A DNA stretch of 64,000 nt from NCBI GenBank assembly GCA_965659495.1, contig CBFHVR010000016.1, positions 12,387 through 76,386 of the forward strand, read 5' to 3'. The position numbers were made by a program, and so were the translations under genes. The notes below the pieces were generated by a model that was not told the origin of the DNA, made no database searches, and saw only the letters and a program-made list of their open reading frames with translations. Shown here one piece after another: positions 3 to 24,199 of the stretch (the stretch's first letter is position 1; every line of letters starts with the position of its first letter). This stretch comes from an uncultured bacterium. Lineage in GTDB: Bacteria > Fidelibacterota > Marinisomatia > SCGC-AAA003-L08 > D37C17.

Positions 3-899
3 TTAACTAAACAAACGTGTTATCCTGGTAATGGTTATGATGTTGGAGATGATTGGAAACTAGCAGATTGGAATGGTGATCTAAATGGTGGTCACTACAA
101 TGTTATTTTTATTGATATGTCTGCAACTTGGTGACCTACATGTTATCAGTCACTTCAAGGCCCGGCGGGCGAAGTGCACCATAATTTTGAAGATAATGAG
201 TATGTTAAGTTTTTAGGAGCTTTGTCCGATTTAAATCAACCTTATTCGTGTACTCAATGGGGAAATGCTCCTGATGGGGGCTACTCTCAGATTATTCATG
301 ATACAGGAAGTTCAATCTATTCAATGCTTACTCCAAATAATTATGTTCCTGCAACAGTTTGGATTGACCATAAAATGCGTGTACATGATCAGATGAATAC
401 AGCAGGTAGTTGGTCTATATCATCAAGGATAAACGAGATGCTCGAAAGTTGTGGTGAATGTAGGATTGATGGTTCGTTAATTGAAGATTTTAGTTCTAGC
501 AATGATTCCTATCAGTCCTATTGTTGCGAAGACTTTGGTGGAACATATTATGAATTTAGTAATAGTGAAGATAACTATTGTGAAGGTTCAGATGCCACTT
601 GGATATCTTTATGCTCATCATGTACTGGTACTGTAGATACTGATAATGATGGACTGGCTGATGAATGTGATGATTGTTTAAATATGTCTGGTGATTTGAA
701 TGATGATATGATGGTTGATGTATTGGATTTAGTAGGTTTAGTTAATATAATACTAAATGTTACACAGGATACTTCTTCATGCATGCTAATTGATGCAGAT
801 ATGAATAATGATGATATTATTAATATCCAGGATGTTATTTTGGTTATTAATTCAATTCTTCGTGTTCAAATTGATTTTGATAAGTATCAAATTGATTAA
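3..899 (+). CDS. Thioredoxin-fold (TlpA/redoxin-like) candidate selenoprotein with C-terminal dockerin-like module; 5' partial; in-frame TGA (putative Sec) at 132-134
   Basis: The frame of tracked ORF 174-899 stays open back to the window edge (43 sense codons), interrupted only by TGA 132-134. Translation ...GHYNVIFIDMSATW[TGA]PTCYQS... is a thioredoxin-fold WCxxC motif with TGA at the first Cys. A downstream YVPATVWIDHKMRV resembles the cis-Pro loop/beta strand. The C-terminus has DTDNDGLADECDDC and two dockerin-like Ca-binding repeats (GDLNDDMMVDVLDLVGLVNIIL / DADMNNDDIINIQDVILVINSIL, nt 687-863). Confidence 0.65.
151..176 (+). promoter_or_regulatory. Putative bacterial SECIS-like hairpin downstream of the in-frame TGA
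   Basis: CACTTC (151-156) pairs with GAAGTG (171-176). An inner GCCC (160-163) pairs with GGGC (167-170), leaving an apical loop GGC (164-166) and a 3-nt AAG bulge. The stem begins 16 nt after the TGA. GGCCCGGCGGGC is a conspicuous GC island in very AT-rich DNA. Confidence 0.5.
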
Positions 900-3038: not shown

Positions 3039-3546
3039 TGTTATAATCAATGTAATAGGTTTTTATATATGCTGGTGGTTAACTATTTATGGAGCTGTAT
3101 CAAAGTTATATTATATTGGTCCAGTAGCTACATTTATTTTTATTATCATTCACCTGGGAAAATTAACAAATCATAAAAAAGAAGATATTTTTCTATTAAT
3201 TTCTTTTTTTTTAGGTCTTTTTATAGAGACTCTTTTGCTTAATCTTGATATAATTATTCATAAAGGAATTCTTGTTAAATACAATATAGCTCCTTTCTGG
3301 TCTGTATCTCTTTGGTTATGTTTTGCAACAACATTACTTCATAGTTTTAAGTGGCTTAGTAAAAGATATTTAACAAGCTCTCTGTTAGGAATCTTATCAG
3401 CTCCTATGATTTATTTTTCAATGCAATCTATGGATGTAGTGACGTTTGGTGTTGATAAAATTATTGTAATAATATTTACATCTTTTCTATGGGGATTGTT
3501 TTTCCCATTATTTATTTATATATCTGATAGCATCTTAGAATCATGA
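3028..3546 (+). CDS. Multi-pass membrane protein (DUF2878-like)
   Basis: 172 aa with about 5 hydrophobic helices. Start overlaps the upstream gene and the stop overlaps the next start (ATGA). Confidence 0.55.
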   Translation: MKNSVIINVIGFYICWWLTIYGAVSKLYYIGPVATFIFIIIHLGKLTNHKKEDIFLLISFFLGLFIETLLLNLDIIIHKGILVKYNIAPFWSVSLWLCFATTLLHSFKWLSKRYLTSSLLGILSAPMIYFSMQSMDVVTFGVDKIIVIIFTSFLWGLFFPLFIYISDSILES

Positions 3547-4171: not shown

Positions 4172-4747
4172 ATGATGAAATATATTATAGTATTTGTGTG
4201 TGTTACTTTACTCGTAGGTTTTGTATACCCTTTTTTTAAGGCTAAAGAATTAGATGTTAAGAACTTATCTAAAAATTTTTATGATTATAATCTAGAATTA
4301 ATTGATGGAGAAAAAATTACATTAGATAAATATAAAGGTAAAAAAGTTATAATTGTTAATGTTGCTTCAAAATGTGGTTATACTTATCAGTACGGAGGAT
4401 TACAAAATCTATATGAAGAATATAGTGACAAAATAGAAATTATCGGTATCCCTACTAATGATTTTATGTGGCAGGAACCTGGCAAAAATAAGGATATTCA
4501 AACTTTTTGTAGCGTTAATTATGGTGTTACTTTCCCCATAATTAAAAAAACAGTTGTTAAGAAGAATATTAATCAACATCCAATATATTCTTGGCTATCT
4601 TCAAAGCAATTAAATGGATGGAATGATTCAGAGCCAGGTTGGAATTTTTATAAATACTTAGTTAATGAAAAAGGCGAGTTAATAGACATACTTTCTTCAA
4701 AAGTTAAACCACAAGATAAAAAAATAATTGATTTTATAAATAGTTAA
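4172..4747 (+). CDS. Glutathione peroxidase family protein (Cys type) with N-terminal membrane anchor/signal
   Basis: VNVASKCGYT (GPx active-site motif NVASxCGxT with Cys), NDFMWQEPG, and the YGVTFPI and WNFxKYLV motifs. Confidence 0.85.
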   Translation: MMKYIIVFVCVTLLVGFVYPFFKAKELDVKNLSKNFYDYNLELIDGEKITLDKYKGKKVIIVNVASKCGYTYQYGGLQNLYEEYSDKIEIIGIPTNDFMWQEPGKNKDIQTFCSVNYGVTFPIIKKTVVKKNINQHPIYSWLSSKQLNGWNDSEPGWNFYKYLVNEKGELIDILSSKVKPQDKKIIDFINS

Positions 4748-6993
4748 TGATTTTTAATAAACTAATATATCTTTTATTTTTTTCTTTTATGTATTCTGCT
4801 ATTATAGTTGGAACAGTCAAGGATGAAGAGGGAAGCCCTATCATTTATGCAAATGTGTATTTAAAAGATACCTTTGACGGAACCTCTTCAGATGATAAAG
4901 GTTCTTTTGCTTTTGAAACATACGAAACTGGAAATCAAACCCTTATTATTAGTTTTATTGGTTATGAATCTTATGAGAAGGAATATAATGTAGATGAAAA
5001 TTTAACTTTAGATATCATACTAAAACAGCTGATTACCAGAGCTGATGAGGTAGTTATAACAGCGGGTTCTTTTGGAGCTAGTGATGATGAAAAAGTTATT
5101 GTTTTAGATCCAATTGATATTGTCACTGTTGCAAGTTCACGAGGTGAAATATCTGGAGCACTAGAAGCACTTCCAGGTACTCAACCACAAGCTGATAAAG
5201 AAGGTGTTTATGTAAGAGGTGGAGATGCATCTGAAGCAAAACAAATTGTTGATGGGATGCTTATCCAAAACCCATATTTTAGTGATGTTCCTGATATTCC
5301 ACAAAGAGGTCGATTTGAACCCTTTGATTTTCAGGGTACTGCCTTTAGTCAGGGAGGATATTCTGCTCAATATGGGCAAGCATTATCAGCAATAGTTGAT
5401 CTTAAAACGTGGACAAGGTTTGGAGATTTTAATGCAAATACTTTTGGAATTACACCCCTTAGCTTAGGTTATGGAAGAGGCTATGGTAACGATAGTACTG
5501 CTTGTGGAATTAATATTGATTATTCAAATATAGAGTATTTTCAAAATTTTAATAACAGTTCTAATTTTATTAAAAGTAGAGTTGATTTTACTAGTCCTCC
5601 AGAAGGATTAGAAATTAAAACTAATTATGCTAAAAAATTTAAAAATGGTATTTATAAATATATAGGTAGAATTACAGATTATAGTTTAGGAACAAGAGAA
5701 GCAGATATAGGTTCTGGTTTTAATCTTGATAATAAAAATTTATTTTTATTATCAACTTACAGAGGAAAAATAAGTAAAAATTGGAGGGCTCAGTTTGGAA
5801 TTTCATATTCTGAGAATTCGAACGATGCTGAAATCATTTCAGAAGATTATATAGATCCATTAGATATAGACTCTTATGATGATTTATTTCAATTAAGAAC
5901 GGTATTTACTAAAAAATTTCTAGGCAGATCTAAAATTAATTTCGGAATTCATTTATTTGATCAGTCGAGTGAATTTATCAATTATACTTATGAATTTAAT
6001 GAAAACGATGAATCAGATGAATCTACTTTTGATCCACCTGACTTGGTAATGATTGATGAGTTTTTATCAACTGCATTTACTGAATTAGATTTACGTTTAT
6101 TTAAAAATTTTGCTATTAATGCTGGCATAAGGTATGAGAATTCTAAATTATTAGATAAAAGTAGCTTTTCTCCAAGATTTTCATCTGCAATTAAAGTAAC
6201 AAAAAATAGTCAGATTTCTTATGCTTATGGTGTGTATTATCAAACTCCCGATATGGGGTTTGATCAGTGGTACAGACAAAATAATTTAGATGTTGATTTT
6301 AATAATTCTGGGTTAGATTTTGAAAAATCGATTCATAATATTTTGAACTATGAGTGGTCAAAAAAGAAAAAAACAATACGATTTGAAATATTTAATAAAA
6401 AGTATGAAAATTTAGTTGTTTCCAATAGTACTGATTGTGGCTTTGAAGTTTGTAAAAATAATTTATCAAATCAAGGTTTTGGTTATTCAAGAGGAGCAGA
6501 ACTTTTTTGGAGGTCTAACCAAACTATTGATGGTATTGGTAAAGATATCTGGATTGCTTATTCATATTTAGATAGTAAACGCAAGTTTAAGCAGTTCTCA
6601 AATGAAATCATACCAAGCTTTGCATCGAATCATAAACTAACATTTATTTACAAAAATGCATTTAAGTTAAAAAATGGGGATGGATTTAATACTAGTCTTG
6701 CAATTACGGGTACTTCTGGATATCCATATTACGATCCTTTTAGAAATGAACAATTTGAATCTGATCCATACCTCTCGTTTGATATAGGAGGTAGCTATTT
6801 ACCTCAAGTTGACGATGGTTTTATGGTTGTTTTCTTTAATATTTCTAATCCGTTTGGCTATAGAAATAGTTTTGGATATAATTTTGTCGATTTTGATTCA
6901 ACTGAATTGGATTCACCTGATGAAAAGCTACCTGGAAGCTTGAGAAGTGTTTTTATTGGATGTTTTATGTTTTTTTCTGTAGATAAAGATTAA
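4747..6993 (+). CDS. TonB-dependent receptor-like outer membrane protein with CarboxypepD_reg-like N-terminal domain
   Basis: 748 aa. Signal peptide, then GTVKDEEGSPIIYANVYLKDTFDGTSSDDKGSFAF (carboxypeptidase-regulatory-like). Plug-like region ...ALEALPGTQP...GVYVRGGDASEAKQIVDGM. Long beta-rich C-terminal part. Confidence 0.7.
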   Translation: MIFNKLIYLLFFSFMYSAIIVGTVKDEEGSPIIYANVYLKDTFDGTSSDDKGSFAFETYETGNQTLIISFIGYESYEKEYNVDENLTLDIILKQLITRADEVVITAGSFGASDDEKVIVLDPIDIVTVASSRGEISGALEALPGTQPQADKEGVYVRGGDASEAKQIVDGMLIQNPYFSDVPDIPQRGRFEPFDFQGTAFSQGGYSAQYGQALSAIVDLKTWTRFGDFNANTFGITPLSLGYGRGYGNDSTACGINIDYSNIEYFQNFNNSSNFIKSRVDFTSPPEGLEIKTNYAKKFKNGIYKYIGRITDYSLGTREADIGSGFNLDNKNLFLLSTYRGKISKNWRAQFGISYSENSNDAEIISEDYIDPLDIDSYDDLFQLRTVFTKKFLGRSKINFGIHLFDQSSEFINYTYEFNENDESDESTFDPPDLVMIDEFLSTAFTELDLRLFKNFAINAGIRYENSKLLDKSSFSPRFSSAIKVTKNSQISYAYGVYYQTPDMGFDQWYRQNNLDVDFNNSGLDFEKSIHNILNYEWSKKKKTIRFEIFNKKYENLVVSNSTDCGFEVCKNNLSNQGFGYSRGAELFWRSNQTIDGIGKDIWIAYSYLDSKRKFKQFSNEIIPSFASNHKLTFIYKNAFKLKNGDGFNTSLAITGTSGYPYYDPFRNEQFESDPYLSFDIGGSYLPQVDDGFMVVFFNISNPFGYRNSFGYNFVDFDSTELDSPDEKLPGSLRSVFIGCFMFFSVDKD

Positions 6994-7655
6994 TGAAATA
7001 TAAAATTTATATAGTATTATTTTCCTTCATATTTTCTTCTGAGTATGCAGAGAGATACTATAGCGCAATGGATAAAGGTATTAAGATGTTTGAGTCCTCT
7101 GAAACAGAAGGTGAATTTTTAGAAACATCTAATTATTTTTACCGTATATCTCAGGTTGTTAAAGATGATTGGCTTTCTAGCTATTATTATGCCTATAGTA
7201 ATACAAGTTTAAGCATGATGCAAGATGATCCTGATATTAAGGAATTATATTTGGATAAAGCATTTGATATTATTTCTCCTTTTGATACTTTACAAATTTC
7301 TAATATAGACTCTATAGCGATGTCAGAAATACATACCTTGAAAGCCATGATTTATGTTGGAAAAATATTTATTAACCCAATGGTTAATGGTATGAAATAT
7401 GGTTCTTTAGCAGAAAAAAATATAAATAAAGCTATTTCATATTGTCCATCAAATCCTCGCCCCTACTATCTTAGTGGTCAATCAAAATTTTATACTCCTT
7501 CTGCATTTGGCGGTGGAATAGATAAAGCATTGCCACTTCTTAAAAAATCTTTGAATAATTATGAAATTTTTAAAGAAAAAAAATATTGGCCAAATTGGGG
7601 TCAAGAAAAATGTCAATTATTATATGAAAAGGCGTTAGCTGATGAAAAAAAATAA
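6993..7655 (+). CDS. Hypothetical secreted protein (helical/TPR-like?)
   Basis: 220 aa with a signal-like N-terminus. Translationally coupled to the upstream receptor (TAATG overlap). Confidence 0.45.
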   Translation: MKYKIYIVLFSFIFSSEYAERYYSAMDKGIKMFESSETEGEFLETSNYFYRISQVVKDDWLSSYYYAYSNTSLSMMQDDPDIKELYLDKAFDIISPFDTLQISNIDSIAMSEIHTLKAMIYVGKIFINPMVNGMKYGSLAEKNINKAISYCPSNPRPYYLSGQSKFYTPSAFGGGIDKALPLLKKSLNNYEIFKEKKYWPNWGQEKCQLLYEKALADEKK

Positions 7656-8835
7656 TAAGTACTTAATGTTTATAATCTTCTTTTTATCACTAATATTTTG
7701 TTCAAATGAAAAAGATGAATACGTAATTCTTGTATCCTTTGATGGTTTTAGATATGACTATACTGATAGGTTTGAATTGCCTTATTTTGATTATATAGAA
7801 GAATGGGGTGTTAAAGCTAAATCATTAAAGCCTATTTTTCCTTCCTTTACTTTCCCAAACCATTATGCAATTGCTACAGGGTGTTATGCTAATAAACATA
7901 AAATATTAGGTAATGAATTCAAGAATGAATTAGGTGAGTATTCTTACAAAGATAAAAATTCAGTCCAAGATGCTAAGTGGTATGGTGCTGAGCCTATTTG
8001 GGTTACTGCTGAAAAAAATAATATGATTACAGCAACTTATTTTTGGGTTGGTTCTGAAGCTCCTATTGGTGGATTGTATCCTACCTATTATAAAAACTAT
8101 GAATCTGGAATCAATCCATACGATAAAGTAGATCAAGCAATAGATTGGTTAGAATATCCGATATCTTCTAGACCTAAATTAGTATGCTTATATTTTAACG
8201 AGCCTGATCATGCAGGTCATGTATATGGAGCAAATTCATTGCAAGTAAATGAGGAGATTAAAGCTTCAAATGATATCCTAGGATATCTTCTAAAATCTAT
8301 TTCAAAATTAGATATTTTTGATAAGATTAATATTGTTATTGTTAGTGATCATGGAATGGTTGATGTGGGAAAAGAAAGAATAATTAATATTGATGATTTT
8401 AATATTCCAGGTATAGTTGATGGTGAAGGTCCTTTAATGAGTGTAAAGTTAGATTCAAATATAAATTTCAATATAGATGATTTAGCTATACCGAATGTTT
8501 CAATTGCATCATCAGCTAATAATGATATATTAAACTATCATAATCCTATATACGATTTTTTATTGATTGCTGATGAGGGATGGATGATGTATAGAAATAA
8601 TCATTTAAAAGCGTATAATAATAATCTTCCAGTTAAGGGGATGCATGGATATAGCTCGGATTATATGAATATGCATGCTATCTTCTATGCATGTGGACCA
8701 AGCTTTAAATCAGGTTATAAAATTGATACATTCGAACTAATTGATATTTATCCGCTTATATGCAGTATTCTACAAATTAAACCATATAATGATATCGATG
8801 GAAGTCTCGATGTATTTAAAACAATATTAAAATAA
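7642..8835 (+). CDS. Ectonucleotide pyrophosphatase/phosphodiesterase (NPP, alkaline-phosphatase superfamily)
   Basis: VSFDGFRYDY, FPSFTFPNHYAIATG (nucleophile Thr region), EPDHAGHVYG and VSDHGM metal-ligand motifs. Signal peptide present. Confidence 0.85.
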   Translation: MKKNNKYLMFIIFFLSLIFCSNEKDEYVILVSFDGFRYDYTDRFELPYFDYIEEWGVKAKSLKPIFPSFTFPNHYAIATGCYANKHKILGNEFKNELGEYSYKDKNSVQDAKWYGAEPIWVTAEKNNMITATYFWVGSEAPIGGLYPTYYKNYESGINPYDKVDQAIDWLEYPISSRPKLVCLYFNEPDHAGHVYGANSLQVNEEIKASNDILGYLLKSISKLDIFDKINIVIVSDHGMVDVGKERIINIDDFNIPGIVDGEGPLMSVKLDSNINFNIDDLAIPNVSIASSANNDILNYHNPIYDFLLIADEGWMMYRNNHLKAYNNNLPVKGMHGYSSDYMNMHAIFYACGPSFKSGYKIDTFELIDIYPLICSILQIKPYNDIDGSLDVFKTILK

Positions 8836-9549
8836 GTGGAATTTTTTTTTTCAGATAATATTATTGATAATATAATTACTTTAGATTCACAAGAATCAAA
8901 GCATTGTTCTAAAGTACTAAGAAAAAATATTGGAGATAATATTCACGTTGTTGATGGAAAAGGAACTCTATATAGTGGAAAAATAGTTCTAATCACCAAG
9001 AAAAAATGTGATATAAGTATTATAACAACTCAAAAAAATTATAATAATAAAAAATACTATACACACATTGCAATTTCTCCTATTAAAAATCATGATAGGT
9101 TGGAGTTCTTTGTTGAAAAGTCTATTGAAATAGGAGTAGATGAGATATCATTTATTCAATGCGAAAGAACATTAAGAAAAAAAATTAAATTAGAAAGAAT
9201 TAGAAAAATTGCTGTAACTGCTATGAAACAAACATTGAAAGCAAAATTACCTAAAATAAATGATGTCCAACTTTTCGGCTCTTTTATTGATAAATGTTCT
9301 AATAAATCTAAGTTTATATGTCATCTTGAAAATGAAAAAAGAAAAAATTTATTTTCTTACAAAGAAACTATTATTAAAGCGAAAAATAATTGTATTTTAA
9401 TTGGTCCAGAAGGAGATTTTACTGAGAAAGAAATTTTATTATCGAAAAATTTCAGTTTTAATCCTATAAGTTTAGGTCAGAGTCGCTTAAGAACTGAAAC
9501 GGCTGGTTTTGTTTCTTGTAGCATGATTAATATGATAAATGAATTTTGA
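8836..9549 (+). CDS. rsmE: 16S rRNA (uracil1498-N3)-methyltransferase RsmE
   Basis: 237 aa with a GTG start directly after the upstream TAA. HCSKVLR near the N-terminus and a GPEGDFTEKE...RTETA C-terminal SPOUT motif. Confidence 0.8.
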   Translation: MEFFFSDNIIDNIITLDSQESKHCSKVLRKNIGDNIHVVDGKGTLYSGKIVLITKKKCDISIITTQKNYNNKKYYTHIAISPIKNHDRLEFFVEKSIEIGVDEISFIQCERTLRKKIKLERIRKIAVTAMKQTLKAKLPKINDVQLFGSFIDKCSNKSKFICHLENEKRKNLFSYKETIIKAKNNCILIGPEGDFTEKEILLSKNFSFNPISLGQSRLRTETAGFVSCSMINMINEF

Positions 9550-10006
9550 TATTCATACTAAGTGGATGGAAGAGGCGTACAATTTGGCAATTAAGTCTTA
9601 TAATTGTGATGAAGTTCCTGTAGGTGCCATTATTGTTGAGAATAATAAGATTATTGGTAGAGGACATAATGAAGTTGAGAAGTTAAATGATTCAACTGCC
9701 CATGCAGAGATGATTGCTATTACTTCTGCTGCAAATTATAAAAATGATTGGAGATTAATAGATACGAGTATTTATATAACTAAAGAGCCTTGTATCATGT
9801 GTTATGGTGCTATTTTAAATTCGAGGATAAAAAACTTATATTATGGCGTAGAAGATCCAAAGTTAGGATTTAAAGTAAACCTAGTAGATCTAAATTATTT
9901 AAATATTCATCTCAATAACATTCAATCTGGAATATTACACGAAAAATGTAGAGTTATTTTAAAAGAATTTTTTCAAAATAAGAGAAAAAATAATAAAATA
10001 AAATAG
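9539..10006 (+). CDS. tadA: tRNA adenosine(34) deaminase TadA
   Basis: VPVGAIIV, HAEMIAI and PCIMCYGAI (H-A-E / PC-x2-C zinc deaminase motifs). Confidence 0.9.
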   Translation: MNFDIHTKWMEEAYNLAIKSYNCDEVPVGAIIVENNKIIGRGHNEVEKLNDSTAHAEMIAITSAANYKNDWRLIDTSIYITKEPCIMCYGAILNSRIKNLYYGVEDPKLGFKVNLVDLNYLNIHLNNIQSGILHEKCRVILKEFFQNKRKNNKIK

Positions 10007-10035
10007 TAATAATTCATTAAATTTTATATCATTAT

Positions 10036-10122
10036 GGAGAGGTGTCCGAGTGGTTTAAGGTGCACGCCTGGAACGCGTGTATGGATGAAAGTCCATCGGG
10101 AGTTCGAATCTCCCTCTCTCCG
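10036..10122 (+). tRNA. tRNA-Ser (anticodon GGA)
   Basis: Acceptor GGAGAGG/TCTCTCC, anticodon stem CACGC/GCGTG with loop CTGGAAC, long variable arm, T-arm GGGAG-TTCGAAT-CTCCC. Confidence 0.9.
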
Positions 10123-10134
10123 CATTTATAGATT

Positions 10135-12195
10135 ATGGGCTATAGAAAAAAAATATACATATTATTCTTTTCATTAATATTTTCATTTTCAAATAATAAA
10201 ATTGGATATGTTCATTTTATCGAAGGTGAATGTTATGTGAAAAATAATCAGACAAGTAATAAGTATTTTAAAGTTTATATTGGAACAGATATTTATGAAA
10301 ACGATTTCATTAAATCAAATGATGACTCTAACTGTATAATACGATTTAATGATGATAAAACTCATTTGTTTATTGAGCCTAAAACTATTGTTAGCTTGGA
10401 TGACGATAATTTTTCAAGATCAATTGATTTAATTAATGGTAGTATCTATATTAAAAATTTGTTTAATGACAAAAAAAATGTTTATGTTTTTACCTCTAAT
10501 AATCAAATCTCATTAACTAATAATAGATTATGGATTAAATCAACTAAACTATTATATGATTATATTTACTCCTTAGATAGTAATCTTGATATTTATAATG
10601 AATACCATAAAAAAAATATAAATATAGATAGACTGTCTTTAATGTATTTTGAGAATCAAAAATATAGCTACGTATCTAATTATGTTGACTTTATCCCAAA
10701 GTATATTTTAAATGATGGTTATGATTTTAATTTTAATAATAAAAAAATAGAAATAAAAAAATATGATATGATTCCTATATATGGAGATAGAATTATAAAC
10801 AATAGATTTGTTGATCCTTATAAAGTTTCTTTTGATTTAGGGACTAAAATATTAAATAATGATTCTCATGTTAAAGTTGGAATATATCCTAATTATCAAA
10901 ATAAAAACTTATCGATTCAAGCTAATATCGAATCATATGTTAGTCCTTCTGGAAATGATTTGGATAATTATTGGAATGATGGTTTTGATTATTTAGATAA
11001 GTTATCAATAAACTATTCATATTATAGAAATAAAAATCAAATGTATTTAGTATTTGGTGAAATTGAAAATGTCTCTTTTGCAAGTGGGTATATTCTAAAT
11101 TCAATCAGTAATTCAATAGATTATCCTAGAAAAATTAATTCTGGTTTGCATTTGAAGTATATCTTTGATACTAATTTTATGGATTTAGATTTATTAATAC
11201 CAAGTATTAGAGATTTTGGTAATAATGGTGGTATGGTAGCTGCAAGAACTTCTATTTATATATCACATAATTTTCCCTTGACTATAGGGTTAGGATTTAT
11301 AGTAGATTTTAATCAGTTCTCAGATATATCTCAATCATTAAATAAAAATGCTAAAAAAAGAGCAGCTCATGGTTTAGAATTAGATTTTAATTATAATTTA
11401 GTGTCTAGTATTGATTTAGATATAAACATTTTTGGTGAATTTGCTGGTCTTTGGTATCCAGAATACAACTACTATATTTTATATGATGGCCAAAATGTTT
11501 CTAATGATTTAAGATGGAGAAAAGGGTCTTGGGGTATCAATGCACCAGGTTTTTCAATTGAGGTTGATAATCGTTATTTATTTAAGTTTTCATTTAATTA
11601 TAACTCTGCAACATTTATACCAAATTATTTTAATTCAACATATTTATACAATAGGGCTAGGTATTATAAAGGAATCTTAGATTATCCAATGATACAAAAG
11701 CAAATAGATTATTTAAATGATAATTTTTTAGTTGGAGAATCTTGCGCAGCAGGAGAAGAGTGTGAATATTTGATTCCAAAAGATGTTTACCCTATATTAG
11801 TACAAAATGATGGTTTTAGTGGTTTTAATACATTTGGTTTTACATCAGAAATTAGGTATAAATTTCAATCTTTTATTAGTGCATCATTAATGTCATCAGT
11901 TTTTATTGAAGAGTCAGATAACTCTAATTCTTACTATTCATTCCAGTCATCAGTTAATATTGATAAGGGTTATATAAGAAACCTCGATTTCCTTAAATTC
12001 TATTTTTCAAATATATTTTTCTCTAAATTATCTGACAAATATAGGTCGGCATATGGTATAGAAGCAGGTGCTGAGTTGCCATTGAGTTTATCTTTGATAA
12101 TTAACTTAGGCCAAGTATATTACGACAAGAATCTGCTGACTAATGATATTGATAAAATGACAAATTTAGATTTTAGTATTAAATACAGTTTTTAA
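10135..12195 (+). CDS. Large hypothetical outer-membrane protein (FecR-like N-terminal domain plus predicted beta-barrel)
   Basis: 686 aa. Signal peptide, then a FecR-like GYVHFIEGECYV...DSNCIIRFNDDKTHLFIEPKT. Alternating beta-strand-like composition, and a C-terminal ...FSIKYSF (terminal Phe typical of OMPs). Confidence 0.5.
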   Translation: MGYRKKIYILFFSLIFSFSNNKIGYVHFIEGECYVKNNQTSNKYFKVYIGTDIYENDFIKSNDDSNCIIRFNDDKTHLFIEPKTIVSLDDDNFSRSIDLINGSIYIKNLFNDKKNVYVFTSNNQISLTNNRLWIKSTKLLYDYIYSLDSNLDIYNEYHKKNINIDRLSLMYFENQKYSYVSNYVDFIPKYILNDGYDFNFNNKKIEIKKYDMIPIYGDRIINNRFVDPYKVSFDLGTKILNNDSHVKVGIYPNYQNKNLSIQANIESYVSPSGNDLDNYWNDGFDYLDKLSINYSYYRNKNQMYLVFGEIENVSFASGYILNSISNSIDYPRKINSGLHLKYIFDTNFMDLDLLIPSIRDFGNNGGMVAARTSIYISHNFPLTIGLGFIVDFNQFSDISQSLNKNAKKRAAHGLELDFNYNLVSSIDLDINIFGEFAGLWYPEYNYYILYDGQNVSNDLRWRKGSWGINAPGFSIEVDNRYLFKFSFNYNSATFIPNYFNSTYLYNRARYYKGILDYPMIQKQIDYLNDNFLVGESCAAGEECEYLIPKDVYPILVQNDGFSGFNTFGFTSEIRYKFQSFISASLMSSVFIEESDNSNSYYSFQSSVNIDKGYIRNLDFLKFYFSNIFFSKLSDKYRSAYGIEAGAELPLSLSLIINLGQVYYDKNLLTNDIDKMTNLDFSIKYSF

Positions 12196-12732: not shown

Positions 12733-13005
12733 ATTCTGTGCTAGATGGGGAGCTAGCGGTTCCTTGTAACCTGAAATCCGCTATATGCAGGATTGAATTC
12801 CAAGTAGAAGGGGTTTGATGAACTTAGTTTTTTTATACAAGCGGTGTTGATGTCTTCAGCTTTACGCAATTAGTATTTCTTGAATTCCGCCAGGTCTGGA
12901 AGGAAGCAACGGTAGAGAAGTATTCATGTGCCGTGAAATCCTGAAGTTGAGCTGGCTATATAAATAATTATTTTAACATAAACTTCAATTTTTGGTGCAC
13001 AGATT
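12733..13005 (+). ncRNA. ffs: Signal recognition particle RNA, long (Bacillus/archaeal-like) form with Alu-like 5' domain
   Basis: CCGCCAGGTCTGGAAGGAAGCAACGGTAG (12887-12915) is the conserved SRP RNA domain IV motif. CTTCAG (12854) pairs with CTGAAG (12941), flanking it as helix 5. 5' TCTGTGC (12735-12741) pairs with 3' GCACAGA (12997-13003). The 5' part GCTAGATGGGGAGCTAGCGGTTCCTTGTAACCTGAAATCCGCTATATGCAGGATT contains three hairpins and a UGUAAC turn typical of Alu domains. The region is GC-richer than its flanks. Exact ends are approximate. Confidence 0.8.
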
Positions 13006-19714: not shown

Positions 19715-20095
19715 ATGGTCAACAATATTGTTTTTTTTATTTTTTCAATCAATATACTTATATCTAATAATGATATTAAATTAAGATCAAATTCTAATAA
19801 ATCTATTGTCGATAAGGATTTAATCAAGTGGTCAAAAGAAGATATCAATATTAATAATTCTGATTATCACGATGAAATTAATTATTTAATTGAGAACTTT
19901 AAAAAAGATAGAGCTTTAATCGTTGAAGAGTTTAAAAGAAATGTTAAACCTTATAAAGATATTAAAAATCAAAATTTAAAAGATATTAAATCCTTATATT
20001 CCAAAAAGAGAAGAGAAATAAAAAAGAAATATGGTATTAAAAATAAAAATAATATTTTGCCTAAAAATGAAATTAAGGACTTAAACAATAAGTAG
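19715..20095 (+). CDS. Hypothetical Lys-rich secreted protein
   Basis: 126 aa with a signal-like N-terminus and no recognised motif. Confidence 0.4.
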   Translation: MVNNIVFFIFSINILISNNDIKLRSNSNKSIVDKDLIKWSKEDININNSDYHDEINYLIENFKKDRALIVEEFKRNVKPYKDIKNQNLKDIKSLYSKKRREIKKKYGIKNKNNILPKNEIKDLNNK

Positions 20096-20104
20096 TCCTT
20101 TTTT

Positions 20105-20749
20105 ATGAAGCGTATCGAAAAGGGAATTAAAATTGCTAAAATTTTAGAAGATTTATATCCTAATACTCCTATTCCTTTAACCCACAAAGATTCTTATACT
20201 CTTTTAGTTGCCGTTATGCTATCTGCTCAGACAACTGATAAAAAAGTTAATGAAGTAACTCCGAATTTATTTAAACTAGCAGATAATCCTCATTCCATGT
20301 CAAAGCTAAGTATTAAAAAAATTGAATTTTTAATCAAACAAATTGGTTTAGCTCCTACTAAAGCTAGAAATCTTCATAATTTATCTAAAAAAATAATTGC
20401 TAAAGGAGGTATGCGTCCAGATTGGAATTTTCTTGAACAATTACCTGGTGTTGGTCATAAGACCGCTAGTGTTGTTATGTCTCAATGGTATGGTATACCA
20501 GCATTTCCGGTTGATACTCATATCCATCGTTTAGCTTCAAGATGGGGTTTATCAAAAGCCAAAAATGTTATTATGACGGAAAATGATTTAAAAAAAATAT
20601 GGCCTAAAATCTTATGGAATAAGTTACATCTACAAATTATATTTTTTGGAAGAGAATATTGTCCAGCTAGAAATCATAATATGCTTGAGTGTCCAATTTG
20701 TTCTTGGGCATCAACTCGTAAAAGAATAAAGTTTGAGATGTCTATTTAG
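20105..20749 (+). CDS. nth: Endonuclease III (HhH-GPD DNA glycosylase)
   Basis: LVAVMLSAQTTD, LPGVGHKTASVV (HhH), PVDTHIHR, and a C-terminal Cys cluster CPARNHNMLECPIC. Confidence 0.88.
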   Translation: MKRIEKGIKIAKILEDLYPNTPIPLTHKDSYTLLVAVMLSAQTTDKKVNEVTPNLFKLADNPHSMSKLSIKKIEFLIKQIGLAPTKARNLHNLSKKIIAKGGMRPDWNFLEQLPGVGHKTASVVMSQWYGIPAFPVDTHIHRLASRWGLSKAKNVIMTENDLKKIWPKILWNKLHLQIIFFGREYCPARNHNMLECPICSWASTRKRIKFEMSI

Positions 20750-23622
20750 TCATCTGATAATATTAGATTAACTAATATTACAATATCTAAAACATCAAAA
20801 TTAGTATCACCATTAAGATCTCCAGCCAGGATTTGGCTTGAATTAGGTTCTGAGTTACCAATAATGATATTTATTGCGACAACCAAATCTAGTACATTTA
20901 AGTATGTATCAGTATTTAAATCTCCAATTAAAATTGAATCTGAATAGTAATAACCTGTTTTGTGATTATCACCTCTATATGTATTCCAATAAAAAGCTTC
21001 AGTAGATGTTTCACTTTTAATATCAATAACTGATAAATTTTGACTGGTACCAATAATAACTTCTAAATCATTATCATTATCTAAGTTTGTTATTGTTGGT
21101 GAACTTTCAAATCCTGTACTAAATTGTATAGGGAAATTTTCAAATTGTGTACCATCAATGTTATATACAATTAATTTACCTTCATTAGTTGCTGATATAA
21201 CCTCAGGTATATTATTGTTATCTAAGTCTGCAAAAATAGGCGAAGAGTTTATTTTCTCATTTCCAATATACTGAGGCCAGTTATTTAAATTTTCTCCATT
21301 CCTATCTATCCCATAAAGATAACCATCTTCTGAACCAAAAAATATCATAACTTGATTATTATGTGTTATAAAGCCAGGCTCTGATTTTATATCATTATTT
21401 GTAGGAACGATAAATTTAACTGAACCATCAATATTTAGTCCGTAAAACATTCCTTCTGTATCACCAATTAATATTGTAATATCATCACCAGTATTAAGTA
21501 TTGAAGGAGCTGCTTTAAACTTATCTTGTGAATTGAAAATAGTTTCATAAGTACCATTATCAAAAATAATATGAACTTCTTTATCATTCTCAGTAGCAAC
21601 TACTATATCATCTTTTCCATTACTATTTAAATCATATATAGAAACTCCATTAAGGATTTTAGAGTTTATTTCAACTGGAAAATTATTAACATTGGTACCG
21701 TTGTGGTTAATAGCAAAGACATCTCCTGAATTTGAATAACCAGTAAATACTATTTCAAGATCATCATCATTATCAAGATTAGCCAATGAAGGTGTACCCA
21801 TTAAATATTGATCAGTTTCGTAGTCAAGTTCAATATTTCCATTTTCATCTATTATATAACAATGTTTATTTTTGGAAGTTATTATAAATTCAATTTCACC
21901 GTCATTATCAATATCTGCTGCAGCAGGAGAACCCCAAATTTCTTTACTAGTACCCTCAATCTCTACAGGAAAACCATTTAGTACATTTCCATTATTGTCG
22001 ACCCCATGAAATAAACCATTATCATCACCAAAAAATATTTCAGAGACTAAATCGTCATTAATATCAATTATTGTAGGAGAAGATTTAATTGTTGTTACTG
22101 TATTATATGGATTACCTTGATCATCAATAAGTGTTGTTGTGTAAGGAAACCCCGTTTGATCTAAAGTTGCATTTATTGTTATATCGTACTGATTCTCACT
22201 AGATTCGCCATTACTTGAAGTAGATATAACAGTTAGGTTTAAAATATGATTTGATAGACTGATATCTTCTGATAGTGAAACTAAGAAAGGACTATTATTA
22301 TTTATAAATGATTGGCCAACATTTAAATTATTAAATGACAGATATTCATTAATAATAGATATAGATTCGTCACTTGTAGATAAAATAACATCAGCATTTT
22401 CTGCATCATTCCATGGAACCAAATTTTCTAGTGTTACAAACAATTCAATTACTTCACCTGGATTTGCAACGTTATCACCATCTCCTTGAAATTCGTTATA
22501 TGAATAATCTTGCATTACAACATTTGGATTATCTAGACTTTGAGGCTCTATACCAATCAATGCTCCTTGATCATAATCAAAACCATTTAATGAACTTAAT
22601 AAATAATTTCCATTTTGTGAGCCACCCCATCCAAAATTATTATGAAAGTAATCTCCATCATAACCATCAATATTCCAAGCATGGCAGCCATCAGTATCAC
22701 AACCATCATAATACATTGGCCTATTAGAATCTAATTCATTTTGTAATATATTTCTAAATTGGGAAGAACTATAGCTGCTAGATGATATTTCACTAACATC
22801 ATTTTTAAATATAAAATAATTTCTTAATGCATTACGTGCTCTAGATGTCTGAGAACCAGAACCATCAATACCAAAGTTCATATTTACTGATACAGCACAA
22901 TGATAGAGTAACTCTTGACTTTCCGACGTAGGGTAAGTATTAGCCATTTGACTGTAATCATATACTGATGCTCCAAAGTTAGCATACTGATATCCATATT
23001 GATTATGAGTATATCCATGAGAACCATATCCGACATCAGGGTATGACCAATAATGCATTACTTGAGCCATTGCAACCGCAACACAGCCTACATATACATT
23101 GCCTCCAGGACCATCTTGATCTTCAGGACACATATCATTCCAGGATGAATCTTGATTCCAACGAGACTGAAGTAAAGGAGATACACTTCTATTTTGAACT
23201 TCATATTCTACTGGATTACTATATTTTATCCATTCGTTTTGGATATAATCCCTTTGAGTATTATTACTTTTTTCAATTGTTAATTCTCTTGAATAAAGGT
23301 TAAATAAATAATTAATATTTGATGGATATGAAGAAGATACCTCAAATTCATTATCAAAACTATAACCAAGAATTGGCATAATCAAATTATTAGCTGAGAC
23401 AAGTACAAAACCTCTAGGGTTTAGTTTAAAAACATAAAATATATCTTCATCACCATGATTAATAAGGCTAATCTCACTGAAGTTAAAATCAACTAAATCT
23501 CTTTGATTTTTAGAAAAGAAAAAGTTTTCAGCAATATCTATTGCTTCAGATTGTGATACAGATTCAGAGAAAGAGAAATTCATTAAAATTAATACATTTA
23601 ATATTAATATTGATATTTTCAT
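20746..23622 (-). CDS. Secreted C10 (streptopain-like) cysteine peptidase fused to FG-GAP/VCBS-like repeats and a C-terminal dockerin-like module
   Basis: 958 aa. Signal peptide; propeptide/inhibitor-like N-terminus (SEAIDIAENFF...). RWNQDSSWNDMCPED...YVGCVAVAMAQVMHYWSYP (catalytic Cys context) and CHAWNIDGYDG (His). Repeats of the type ADIDNDGEIEFI, LANLDNDDDLEIVF, ITNLDNDNDLEVIIG. C-terminal GDLNTDTYLNVLDLVVAINIII / GDLNGDTNFDVLDIVILVNLIL (nt 20749-20934). Confidence 0.8.
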   Translation of the reverse strand: MKISILILNVLILMNFSFSESVSQSEAIDIAENFFFSKNQRDLVDFNFSEISLINHGDEDIFYVFKLNPRGFVLVSANNLIMPILGYSFDNEFEVSSSYPSNINYLFNLYSRELTIEKSNNTQRDYIQNEWIKYSNPVEYEVQNRSVSPLLQSRWNQDSSWNDMCPEDQDGPGGNVYVGCVAVAMAQVMHYWSYPDVGYGSHGYTHNQYGYQYANFGASVYDYSQMANTYPTSESQELLYHCAVSVNMNFGIDGSGSQTSRARNALRNYFIFKNDVSEISSSSYSSSQFRNILQNELDSNRPMYYDGCDTDGCHAWNIDGYDGDYFHNNFGWGGSQNGNYLLSSLNGFDYDQGALIGIEPQSLDNPNVVMQDYSYNEFQGDGDNVANPGEVIELFVTLENLVPWNDAENADVILSTSDESISIINEYLSFNNLNVGQSFINNNSPFLVSLSEDISLSNHILNLTVISTSSNGESSENQYDITINATLDQTGFPYTTTLIDDQGNPYNTVTTIKSSPTIIDINDDLVSEIFFGDDNGLFHGVDNNGNVLNGFPVEIEGTSKEIWGSPAAADIDNDGEIEFIITSKNKHCYIIDENGNIELDYETDQYLMGTPSLANLDNDDDLEIVFTGYSNSGDVFAINHNGTNVNNFPVEINSKILNGVSIYDLNSNGKDDIVVATENDKEVHIIFDNGTYETIFNSQDKFKAAPSILNTGDDITILIGDTEGMFYGLNIDGSVKFIVPTNNDIKSEPGFITHNNQVMIFFGSEDGYLYGIDRNGENLNNWPQYIGNEKINSSPIFADLDNNNIPEVISATNEGKLIVYNIDGTQFENFPIQFSTGFESSPTITNLDNDNDLEVIIGTSQNLSVIDIKSETSTEAFYWNTYRGDNHKTGYYYSDSILIGDLNTDTYLNVLDLVVAINIIIGNSEPNSSQILAGDLNGDTNFDVLDIVILVNLILSDD

Positions 23623-23719
23623 AATTACCTTTGTTTTTACGTTTATAAAATTTATCTAATAATTGTTTATAATATATAATAAATTTTGTAACTAATTATA
23701 ACAAACAAAAGATACAAAA

Positions 23720-24199
23720 ATGAATTTTATATCACAAGAATTTAAAACGACACTTTTTTTAAAATTTTTTGGTTTTTTAAAAGTACCTATGATTTATTAT
23801 TGCAATCCAAAAGTAATTAATATATCAAAAGAAAGTGTTGAAATTAAAATTTCATTAAAAAGAAGAACTAAAAACCATGTGGGAAGTATGTATTTTGGTT
23901 CATTATCAGTAGGTGCTGATGTAACTGGTGCTGTTATAGCCCTAGATTTAATTAAAAAATCTAAATTTAAGATTAATTTATTATTTAAAGATTTTAAAGC
24001 AGATTTTTTAAAAAGAGCTGAAGGTGATGTACATTTTATTTGTAATGATGGTAAGCTAATATCTGAAATGATTAAAGAAACTGAGCTATCTAAGAAGAGG
24101 GTAAATAAACCCATTGATATTACGGCATATGTTCCAAGTAAATTAAAAGATACGCCAGTAGCAAAGTTCATTTTAACTCTATCATTAAAAGCTTACTAA
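23720..24199 (+). CDS. Hot-dog fold protein (DUF4442/PaaI-thioesterase-like), tentative
   Basis: 159 aa. KNHVGSMYFGSLSVGADVTG resembles the thioesterase-like hot-dog core. Weak call. Confidence 0.45.
   Translation: MNFISQEFKTTLFLKFFGFLKVPMIYYCNPKVINISKESVEIKISLKRRTKNHVGSMYFGSLSVGADVTGAVIALDLIKKSKFKINLLFKDFKADFLKRAEGDVHFICNDGKLISEMIKETELSKKRVNKPIDITAYVPSKLKDTPVAKFILTLSLKAY

Follow-up and report, generated by a model that had tools for sequence, protein, structure and literature searches.

An in-frame TGA in an uncultured bacterium, predicted to encode selenocysteine in an exported thioredoxin-fold protein of the Prx-like 3 family

The 64,000-nucleotide stretch of DNA analysed here (hereafter the window) comes from an uncultured bacterium (contig CBFHVR010000016.1, positions 12,387 to 76,386 of the forward strand), and its first gene is interrupted by a single in-frame TGA codon at positions 132-134. 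We find that this codon very likely encodes selenocysteine (Sec, U) in a secreted thioredoxin-fold protein of a marine Marinimicrobia (SAR406) bacterium, carrying a UxxC redox motif. The basis is a column in which TGA alternates with Cys codons among homologs, selection for coding both before and after the TGA, a covarying hairpin downstream of it, use of the standard code in the rest of the window, and the fold of a homolog. The original prediction is upheld in what it observed and in how it read the observation. From these observations we infer that selenium is inserted at this site and that the source genome encodes SelA, SelB, SelD and tRNA-Sec.

Frame 3 is open for 43 sense codons (3-131), meets TGA 132-134 inside the motif S-A-T-W-[TGA]-P-T-C, and then continues open until TAA 897-899, the TGA being its sole interruption from base 3 to base 899. 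Translated from base 3, the frame reads LTKQTCYPGNGYDVGDDWKLADWNGDLNGGHYNVIFIDMSATW, then the stop, then PTCYQSLQGPAGEVHH..., and the residues spanning the site are ...GHYNVIFIDMSATW-[TGA]-PTCYQSLQGPAGEVHH... In the mechanical list of open reading frames (ORFs) the gene is called from GTG 174 (174..899, 241 aa), which is an internal Val codon located within the 3' arm of a hairpin resembling a selenocysteine insertion sequence (SECIS). Translation and ORF list agree here with the original prediction, which had described the GTG 174 start, the 43-codon open frame and the lone TGA. The features of the gene are the following:

3..131, plus strand: N-terminal coding part present in the window, 43 codons; open frame, with the orthologs at loci L001, L002 and L018 extending upstream to an ATG
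132..134, plus strand: in-frame TGA, predicted selenocysteine codon, the U of the UxxC redox motif; based on the TGA/Cys column in homologs
120..143, plus strand: redox motif S-A-T-W-U-P-T-C (W 129-131, U 132-134, C 141-143); based on the family alignment and the AlphaFold2 (AF2) model of homolog P0016
135..899, plus strand: remaining coding sequence, open frame including the stop TAA 897-899
149..179, plus strand: SECIS-like hairpin, minimum free energy -12.9 kcal/mol; the stem begins 14 nt past the TGA codon (135-148)
3..455, plus strand: predicted TlpA/ResA-like thioredoxin-fold domain, incomplete at the window edge; based on the homolog model, Foldseek and weak Pfam matches in homologs
456..689, plus strand: Cys-rich linker (CGEC...YCCED...YCEG...LCSSC...DECDDC), particular to the window's ortholog group; based on alignment A1
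690..860, plus strand: C-terminal dockerin-type Ca-binding repeat pair; Pfam Dockerin_1, residues 230-286

In order to examine the TGA position in related genes, a protein search was run with the read-through product, a C being placed at the stop, and gave 123 matches, all of them marine metagenomic and one named Candidatus Marinimicrobia. A scan of genomes, taking one per GTDB species, returned 40 loci; nearly all of those with a named lineage are metagenome-assembled or single-cell genomes of Candidatus Neomarinimicrobiota (Marinimicrobia, SAR406), and many others are entered as 'uncultured bacterium'. Across these 40 loci, which hold distinct copies at 30-90% identity, the motif column reads TGA 45 times, TGT or TGC 14 times and TGG 0 times. 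In 80 metagenome loci, retrieved with the part downstream of the TGA as query, the corresponding counts are 97 for TGA, 7 for TGT and 0 for TGG. The W-TGA-x-x-TGY arrangement repeats in well over 100 independent homologous genes and is not due to chance. All sequences of the window's own ortholog group have TGA in the column, and the family alignment shows W43 and C47 without exception. Full-length homologs that are more distant carry a signal peptide and extend across the site, some of them with Cys (SATWCPPC in P0084, SATWCGPC in P0103). Homologs aligning Cys or Sec to the TGA column, which the original prediction had led us to look for, are thus present in both sets, and such an alternation, read from the sequences, is the classical Sec/Cys signature.

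The hairpin at 149-179 consists of a lower stem (149-156 paired with 171-179), an AAG bulge (157-159) and an upper stem in which GCCC (160-163) pairs with GGGC (167-170) around the apical loop GGC (164-166), the whole occupying a GC-rich patch that is conspicuous in a genome of 27% G+C. Its loop begins with GG, and guanosines are the conserved apical-loop feature marked in published bacterial SECIS figures. Judged by its position, loop, stability and covariation, the hairpin is what is looked for in a selenoprotein gene: it follows the UGA at a short distance on the 3' side and has G in its apical loop. Stability was assessed by two controls that replaced dinucleotide shuffling (see below): synonymous recodings, in which the peptide is kept, and a comparison of TGA-type with Cys-type genes. 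The native hairpin has z = -4.76 against 300 synonymous recodings, with 0/300 as stable. By synonymous recoding the TGA-type genes have a mean z of -1.04, 11/45 being at p ≤ 0.05, versus a mean of +0.22 and 0/14 for the Cys-type genes (TGA versus Cys, Mann-Whitney p = 0.0004). Small hairpins are found in nearly all TGA-type paralogs, the loop lying about 29-33 nt after the U of the UGA and being rich in G/U (GGC, GGA, GUC, GUU, AGUUG, GGUUU).

Base pairs were counted in alignment A3, whose 52 distinct sequences all have the x5-G-P motif downstream and include the related EGPVG paralog group. Counting was restricted to the upper stem; the register of the lower stem shifts between the GPAGE and GPGAQ types, and this stem has no positional homology across subgroups. 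The upper stem is paired in 81.5% of cells, versus 73.0 ± 1.3 in shuffles (0/500), its covariation score is 0.339 versus 0.185 (0/500), and the chosen register is better than all slid registers. One of its pairs shows full compensatory change (CG 23, GC 17, UG 11). Across A3 at positions 160-170, the swap from GCCC/GGGC to GGGC/GCYC accompanies a change of the peptide from GPAGE to GPGAQ, and the peptide at the upper stem appears to follow the RNA structure. Folding, the recoding controls and the pair counts have located a conserved, covarying, SECIS-like hairpin 3' of the TGA, where the original prediction had proposed to look for one. In addition, a TGT-type paralog at locus L003 (11542) keeps a small AUGG-GUC-CCAU hairpin at the SECIS position of the TGA-type genes, which may be a relic of a change from Sec to Cys.

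One other explanation, which is very unlikely, is that the TGA is decoded with no selenium involved, as Trp (genetic code 4), as Gly (code 25) or by near-cognate Trp/Cys read-through. The genome is very AT-rich, like those of code-4 organisms, public protein databases show W at the column, and Sec machinery was found neither in the window nor in the related loci, all of which would suit this explanation. However, the standard bacterial code accounts for the window: its 47 long, non-overlapping ORFs take up 90% of the sequence, the longest has 1383 codons, and the stops are TAA (32), TAG (8) or TGA (7), the TGA endings including the previously quoted ATGA overlaps of the ORFs that terminate at 3546, 16168 and 37697. 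When the window was scanned for TGA codons that have 35 or more open codons both before and after them, 132-134 alone lay on a coding strand, 14 further ones were antisense shadows of real genes, and no additional in-frame TGA candidate came up. TGA is an ordinary stop in the source organism, which argues for site-specific recoding and not for a reassigned code, as the original prediction had also reasoned.

The database Trp has a different origin. Most full-length database homologs show Trp at the column (SASWWGPC, SATWWGPCYTS, SASWWGSCYTT), but the 'SASWW' of P0016 corresponds to TGG TGA on contig L123 (349-354), and its record is not reproduced by code 11. Trp at this column is thus an artefact of gene callers translating with code 4, as confirmed for P0016. 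Moreover, among the homologous genes TGA alternates with Cys codons only, never with TGG, and the dedicated downstream hairpin is a property of the TGA-type genes only, both of which speak against Trp or Gly at this position.

The region upstream of the TGA is itself coding. Complete genes are available for the orthologs at L001, L002 and L018 (89-91% protein identity), which have an ATG, a signal peptide (MNKILYTILFFTLSFS, followed by YSVGD) and 72 codons in frame ahead of the TGA; by comparison with them, the true start and signal peptide of the window gene should lie about 32 codons upstream, beyond the window edge. Over the 43 upstream codons the synonymous and nonsynonymous changes number 7/1 versus L001, 8/1 versus L002 and 12/9 versus L018, and over 60 downstream codons they number 4/0, 11/2 and 17/10, respectively. 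Since the changes on either side of the TGA are mostly synonymous, both halves are under coding selection in one frame.

This pattern is difficult to reconcile with the TGA being a true stop, in which case a 241-aa protein would start at GTG 174 and the upstream frame would be a relic or a separate small peptide. Gene callers do annotate the gene in this way, and the closest proteins, P0001-P0003 (81-92% identity, 240-241 aa), begin with MHH... after the TGA. Yet a 241-aa product would have no signal peptide, and its fold would be missing the initial strands and the active-site motif, as the alignment and the P0016 model indicate, in agreement with the earlier statement that the domain is complete only if the TGA is decoded. 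In addition, the 43-72 upstream codons are conserved with mainly synonymous change, the presumed GTG start falls within the conserved hairpin arm, over 100 diverged genes keep the TGA at exactly the same column, and the Cys-type homologs read straight through. A true stop is therefore extremely unlikely. The truncated starts of P0001-P0003 are, to judge from sequence comparison, the same mis-call as that of the window gene, because the ortholog DNA has the full N-terminal half, with the signal peptide, in frame. Homologs that begin downstream of the motif, which the original prediction had considered a possible objection, do exist, but as products of this mis-call, and its claim that standard ORF calling truncates the gene is seen both in the ORF list of the window and in P0001-P0003.

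The wrong annotation is systematic and affects hundreds of entries, which have either Trp at the site or, in the closest relatives, a start after the TGA. Trp at the Sec position ('SASWW...') is carried by P0015, P0016, P0021, P0023 and others.

Finally, it can be practically dismissed that the reads or the assembly are in error or that the gene has recently become a pseudogene, although a single base change from a real TGT or TGC codon would be enough. Against this stand the TGA/Cys column counts and the assemblies made independently by many projects in many oceans, which show the TGA again, with protein identities of 52-92% inside the ortholog group.

Several results weigh against selenocysteine. 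The dinucleotide-shuffle test of the hairpin was not significant (z -0.7 to -1.1), because the GC-rich patch folds in any order, and the covariation of the upper stem comes from one double-sided pair and from related sequences. Rfam gave no SECIS-like match, either over the whole window at gathering scores or over positions 100-260 at E ≤ 10; according to the literature, bacterial SECIS models are imperfect. Neither the read-through protein of the window nor a full-length ortholog has a thioredoxin-family match in Pfam or NCBIfam. No tRNA-Sec was detected by ARAGORN, and no selA, selB or selD by tblastn with the E. coli proteins, in the 64-kb window and loci L001-L040 (up to 21 kb per genome); as a small fraction of each genome is covered, the missing machinery is uninformative and neither refutes nor confirms the assignment. 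In the literature on Marinimicrobia/SAR406 and selenocysteine or selenoproteins we found only a listing of 'orphan SelD': Peng et al. 2016 reported three incomplete SAR406 single-cell genomes with SelD and without other Sec trait genes. We count the occurrence of SelD in SAR406 as support and its 'orphan' status as a point to the contrary.

The family has been described before, so the novelty implied by the original prediction does not hold. The catalogue of predicted selenoproteins in the GOS selenoproteome (GOS, Global Ocean Sampling; Zhang & Gladyshev 2008, PLoS Genet 4:e1000095; PMC2398784) lists in its Table 2 a 'Prx-like 3' family with pfam08534 similarity at E > 0.001, a UxxC motif, 68 selenoproteins and 2608 Cys homologs. 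In its supplementary sequence file, the '#Prx-like 3' entries include JCVI_READ_1091138274397 (motif AATWUGSC) and JCVI_READ_1093011906937 (motif SASWUGTC). In the motif region the first is identical to paralog L030-1927 and the second to paralog L001-6913, which lies two genes upstream of the window gene's ortholog. The window protein matches JCVI_READ_1091138274397 at E = 3e-30 and 35% identity, with the U on the TGA column, and JCVI_READ_1304752 at E = 9e-16. From these alignments, the window gene is best described as a member, in a distinct ortholog group, of the published predicted selenoprotein family Prx-like 3.

In common with that family, the window group has UxxC after F/S-[AT]-[ST]-W, a downstream (N/G)QPYSC-(E/Q)W and only weak pfam08534 Redoxin similarity, and many members have C-terminal DxDxDG/dockerin-like extensions. 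In contrast, the features of the window's ortholog group (the motif SATW-U-P[TS]C...GPAGE and, ahead of the dockerin, a Cys-rich insertion) were not found among the members listed in the available part of the supplement ('SATWU', 0 matches). The 2008 data were unassembled reads, and came with no taxonomic assignment, tandem-cluster context or structure. Our literature search found no assignment of Prx-like 3 to Marinimicrobia and no account of its tandem clusters, of its dockerin or type IX secretion system (T9SS) architecture or of the database W artefact, and the phylum Marinimicrobia goes unmentioned in reviews of 2022 and 2026 and in the BSepDB paper. The 'Prx-like' name is historical. The protein does not qualify as a peroxiredoxin proper (AhpC/TSA): there is no PxxxT/SxxC(U) motif, the motif being S-A-T-W-U-x-x-C, with Thr two (not three) residues before the U and no Pro four before it, and PF00578 matches in homologs are sub-threshold.

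As to the fold, the evidence comes from homologs. In Pfam the window protein matches only Dockerin_1 (PF00404), marginally (23.4 bits against a cut-off of 22.9; the homolog P0084 reaches 51.2 bits), and in NCBIfam it has no match. Homologs have weak Redoxin, AhpC-TSA and Thioredoxin matches, with Redoxin at E = 0.0008-0.0025 in P0084 and P0029, and only the Thioredoxin match of P0103 is above its cut-off (24.9 versus 23.5 bits). P0016, whose identity with the window protein is 52% in alignment A1, was modelled with AF2 from a 29-sequence alignment. The model has a mean predicted local distance difference test score (pLDDT) of 80.5 and places W77-U78-x-x-C81 at the junction of strand 68-75 and helix 76-84, like the active site of thioredoxins. 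Its top Foldseek matches in the PDB are extracytoplasmic thiol-disulfide oxidoreductases: the Bacillus protein 4nmu, the pneumococcal surface thioredoxins Etrx1/2 (4hqs, 4hqz), ResA and DsbE-like proteins, with target-normalised TM scores of 0.70-0.80 and E-values of 2e-07 to 1e-05, peroxiredoxins being close behind. Through this homolog, the window protein is predicted to have a TlpA/ResA-type thioredoxin fold with a CxxC-type motif at the N-terminus of helix 1. The thioredoxin fold that had been proposed is thus upheld by the homologs and the P0016 model, whereas the window protein taken alone matches no thioredoxin or Redoxin Pfam family. The domain includes the conserved NQPYSC-QWGN motif and the Pro of YVPATVWID; this Pro, in YVP(A/S)T (P116 in A1, P152 in A2), immediately precedes a strand, is conserved to 90% or more and is a candidate cis-Pro.

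The family shares with the TlpA/ResA/CcmG(DsbE)/Etrx oxidoreductases (4nmu, 4hqs, 4hqz, 2h1a, 3gl3) a W-C-x-x-C-type site at the start of helix 1, as well as an export signal and a location outside the cytoplasm, which for the window protein are predicted. It differs from them in its low sequence identity (14-18%), in having Sec in place of the N-terminal Cys, and in being fused to dockerin, PKD or T9SS sorting modules instead of a membrane anchor or lipobox; among the window neighbours no cytochrome-maturation or Msr partner genes were seen beside the gene. Other predicted bacterial selenoproteins with a UxxC thioredoxin fold likewise have Cys homologs, but are defined by clear PF00578 or PF13098 matches, whereas the present family has weak PF00578, PF08534 and PF00085 similarity, and none of the NCBIfam selenoprotein models matches it.

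In its C-terminal half, the window protein carries a Cys-rich insertion (A1 columns ~270-320) that it alone has among the aligned full-length homologs and that is also present in P0001-P0006. Other family members have PKD and/or T9SS Por_Secre_tail domains after the dockerin-type part. The signal peptide and these C-terminal modules point to an exported protein, probably surface-associated or secreted, and from this architecture we infer an extracytoplasmic location and a redox role. Separately, NCBIfam NF045500, 'Omp28-related selenoprotein', gives weak matches, far below its cut-off (E 7e-05 to 5e-04), in P0029, P0084 and P0021. These are confined to the C-terminal 55-110 residues, the dockerin-like part, and this separate curated selenoprotein family may share the C-terminal module.

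If the TGA is decoded as proposed, the gene would yield one protein of about 330 residues, composed of a signal peptide, a TlpA/ResA-like domain with W-U-P-T-C, the Cys-rich linker and a dockerin-type module. By analogy with the standard bacterial system, the hairpin 149-179 would be bound by SelB-GTP-Sec-tRNA(Sec) when the ribosome stands at the UGA, and release factor 2 would be outcompeted. The protein would then be exported after synthesis and would most likely work outside the cytoplasm, at the cell surface or in secreted form, its role being that of a selenol/thiol oxidoreductase cycling via a Se-S bond between the U and the C three residues on.

The gene belongs to a tandem cluster. At locus L001 of a close relative (isolate MED764; 6685-10897), three UxxC selenoprotein genes stand in tandem, their TGAs being at 6913, 8135 and 10130, and the window gene's ortholog is the third; of the cluster, the window, which starts at about L001 position 9999, includes just the last gene. 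At other Neomarinimicrobiota loci as many as four copies follow one another, with Sec and Cys forms mixed (e.g. L003, L006, L007). A tRNA-Arg(ACG), at 1886-1960 in the window, lies downstream of the selenoprotein cluster in many genomes. It is found near the cluster at L001, L003-L005, L007, L008, L013, L014, L017, L018, L020 and L026, often together with tRNA-Gln(CTG) and tRNA-Glu(CTC), and constitutes a conserved syntenic anchor.

The genes neighbouring the selenoprotein gene in the window encode an alpha/beta hydrolase, an NAD-binding epimerase-like protein, a DUF2878 protein, a glutathione peroxidase, a TonB-dependent receptor and a phosphodiesterase, and there is no obvious redox partner among them. 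The glutathione peroxidase (4172-4747; PF00255, 108 bits) is a Cys form, not a Sec form, with the active site NVASKCGYT, and its gene is directly upstream of that of the TonB-dependent receptor (4747-6993). Elsewhere in the window, positions 12736-13002 hold a full-length bacterial large-type signal recognition particle RNA (RF01854, 134 bits), not the small 4.5S type. The genes of the window are almost all on the plus strand, and the GC skew is negative only at 20001-24000, matching the lone large minus-strand gene (20746-23655, 970 codons).

A further-reaching possibility, which we regard as unlikely, is that the tandem, dockerin- or T9SS-tethered Sec/Cys paralogs constitute a hitherto unrecognised cell-surface selenium redox system, or that their UGA is decoded in a non-canonical way. 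Domain architecture and gene clustering are what speaks for either, and the latter is considered because only an 'orphan' SelD has been reported for the phylum. If such a surface system existed, it might serve, for example, to reduce or detoxify extracellular substrates in the dark or low-oxygen ocean.

The finding reveals no new decoding mechanism, the mechanism presumably being the standard bacterial one, and no new protein class, and will not surprise a selenoprotein specialist; it is useful for annotation and for SAR406 biology. Its value lies mainly in annotation, in that the active-site residue of an abundant marine family is systematically wrong in public databases, the window gene and hundreds of relatives being recorded either truncated or with Trp in place of selenocysteine. 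In addition, the analysis places the GOS 'Prx-like 3' selenoproteins in Marinimicrobia (SAR406), where they occur as tandem clusters of Sec and Cys paralogs encoding exported, dockerin- or T9SS-tagged proteins. This suggests that one of the deep ocean's most abundant lineages carries out selenium-dependent redox chemistry outside the cytoplasm, and that the uncultured SAR406 bacteria require selenium.

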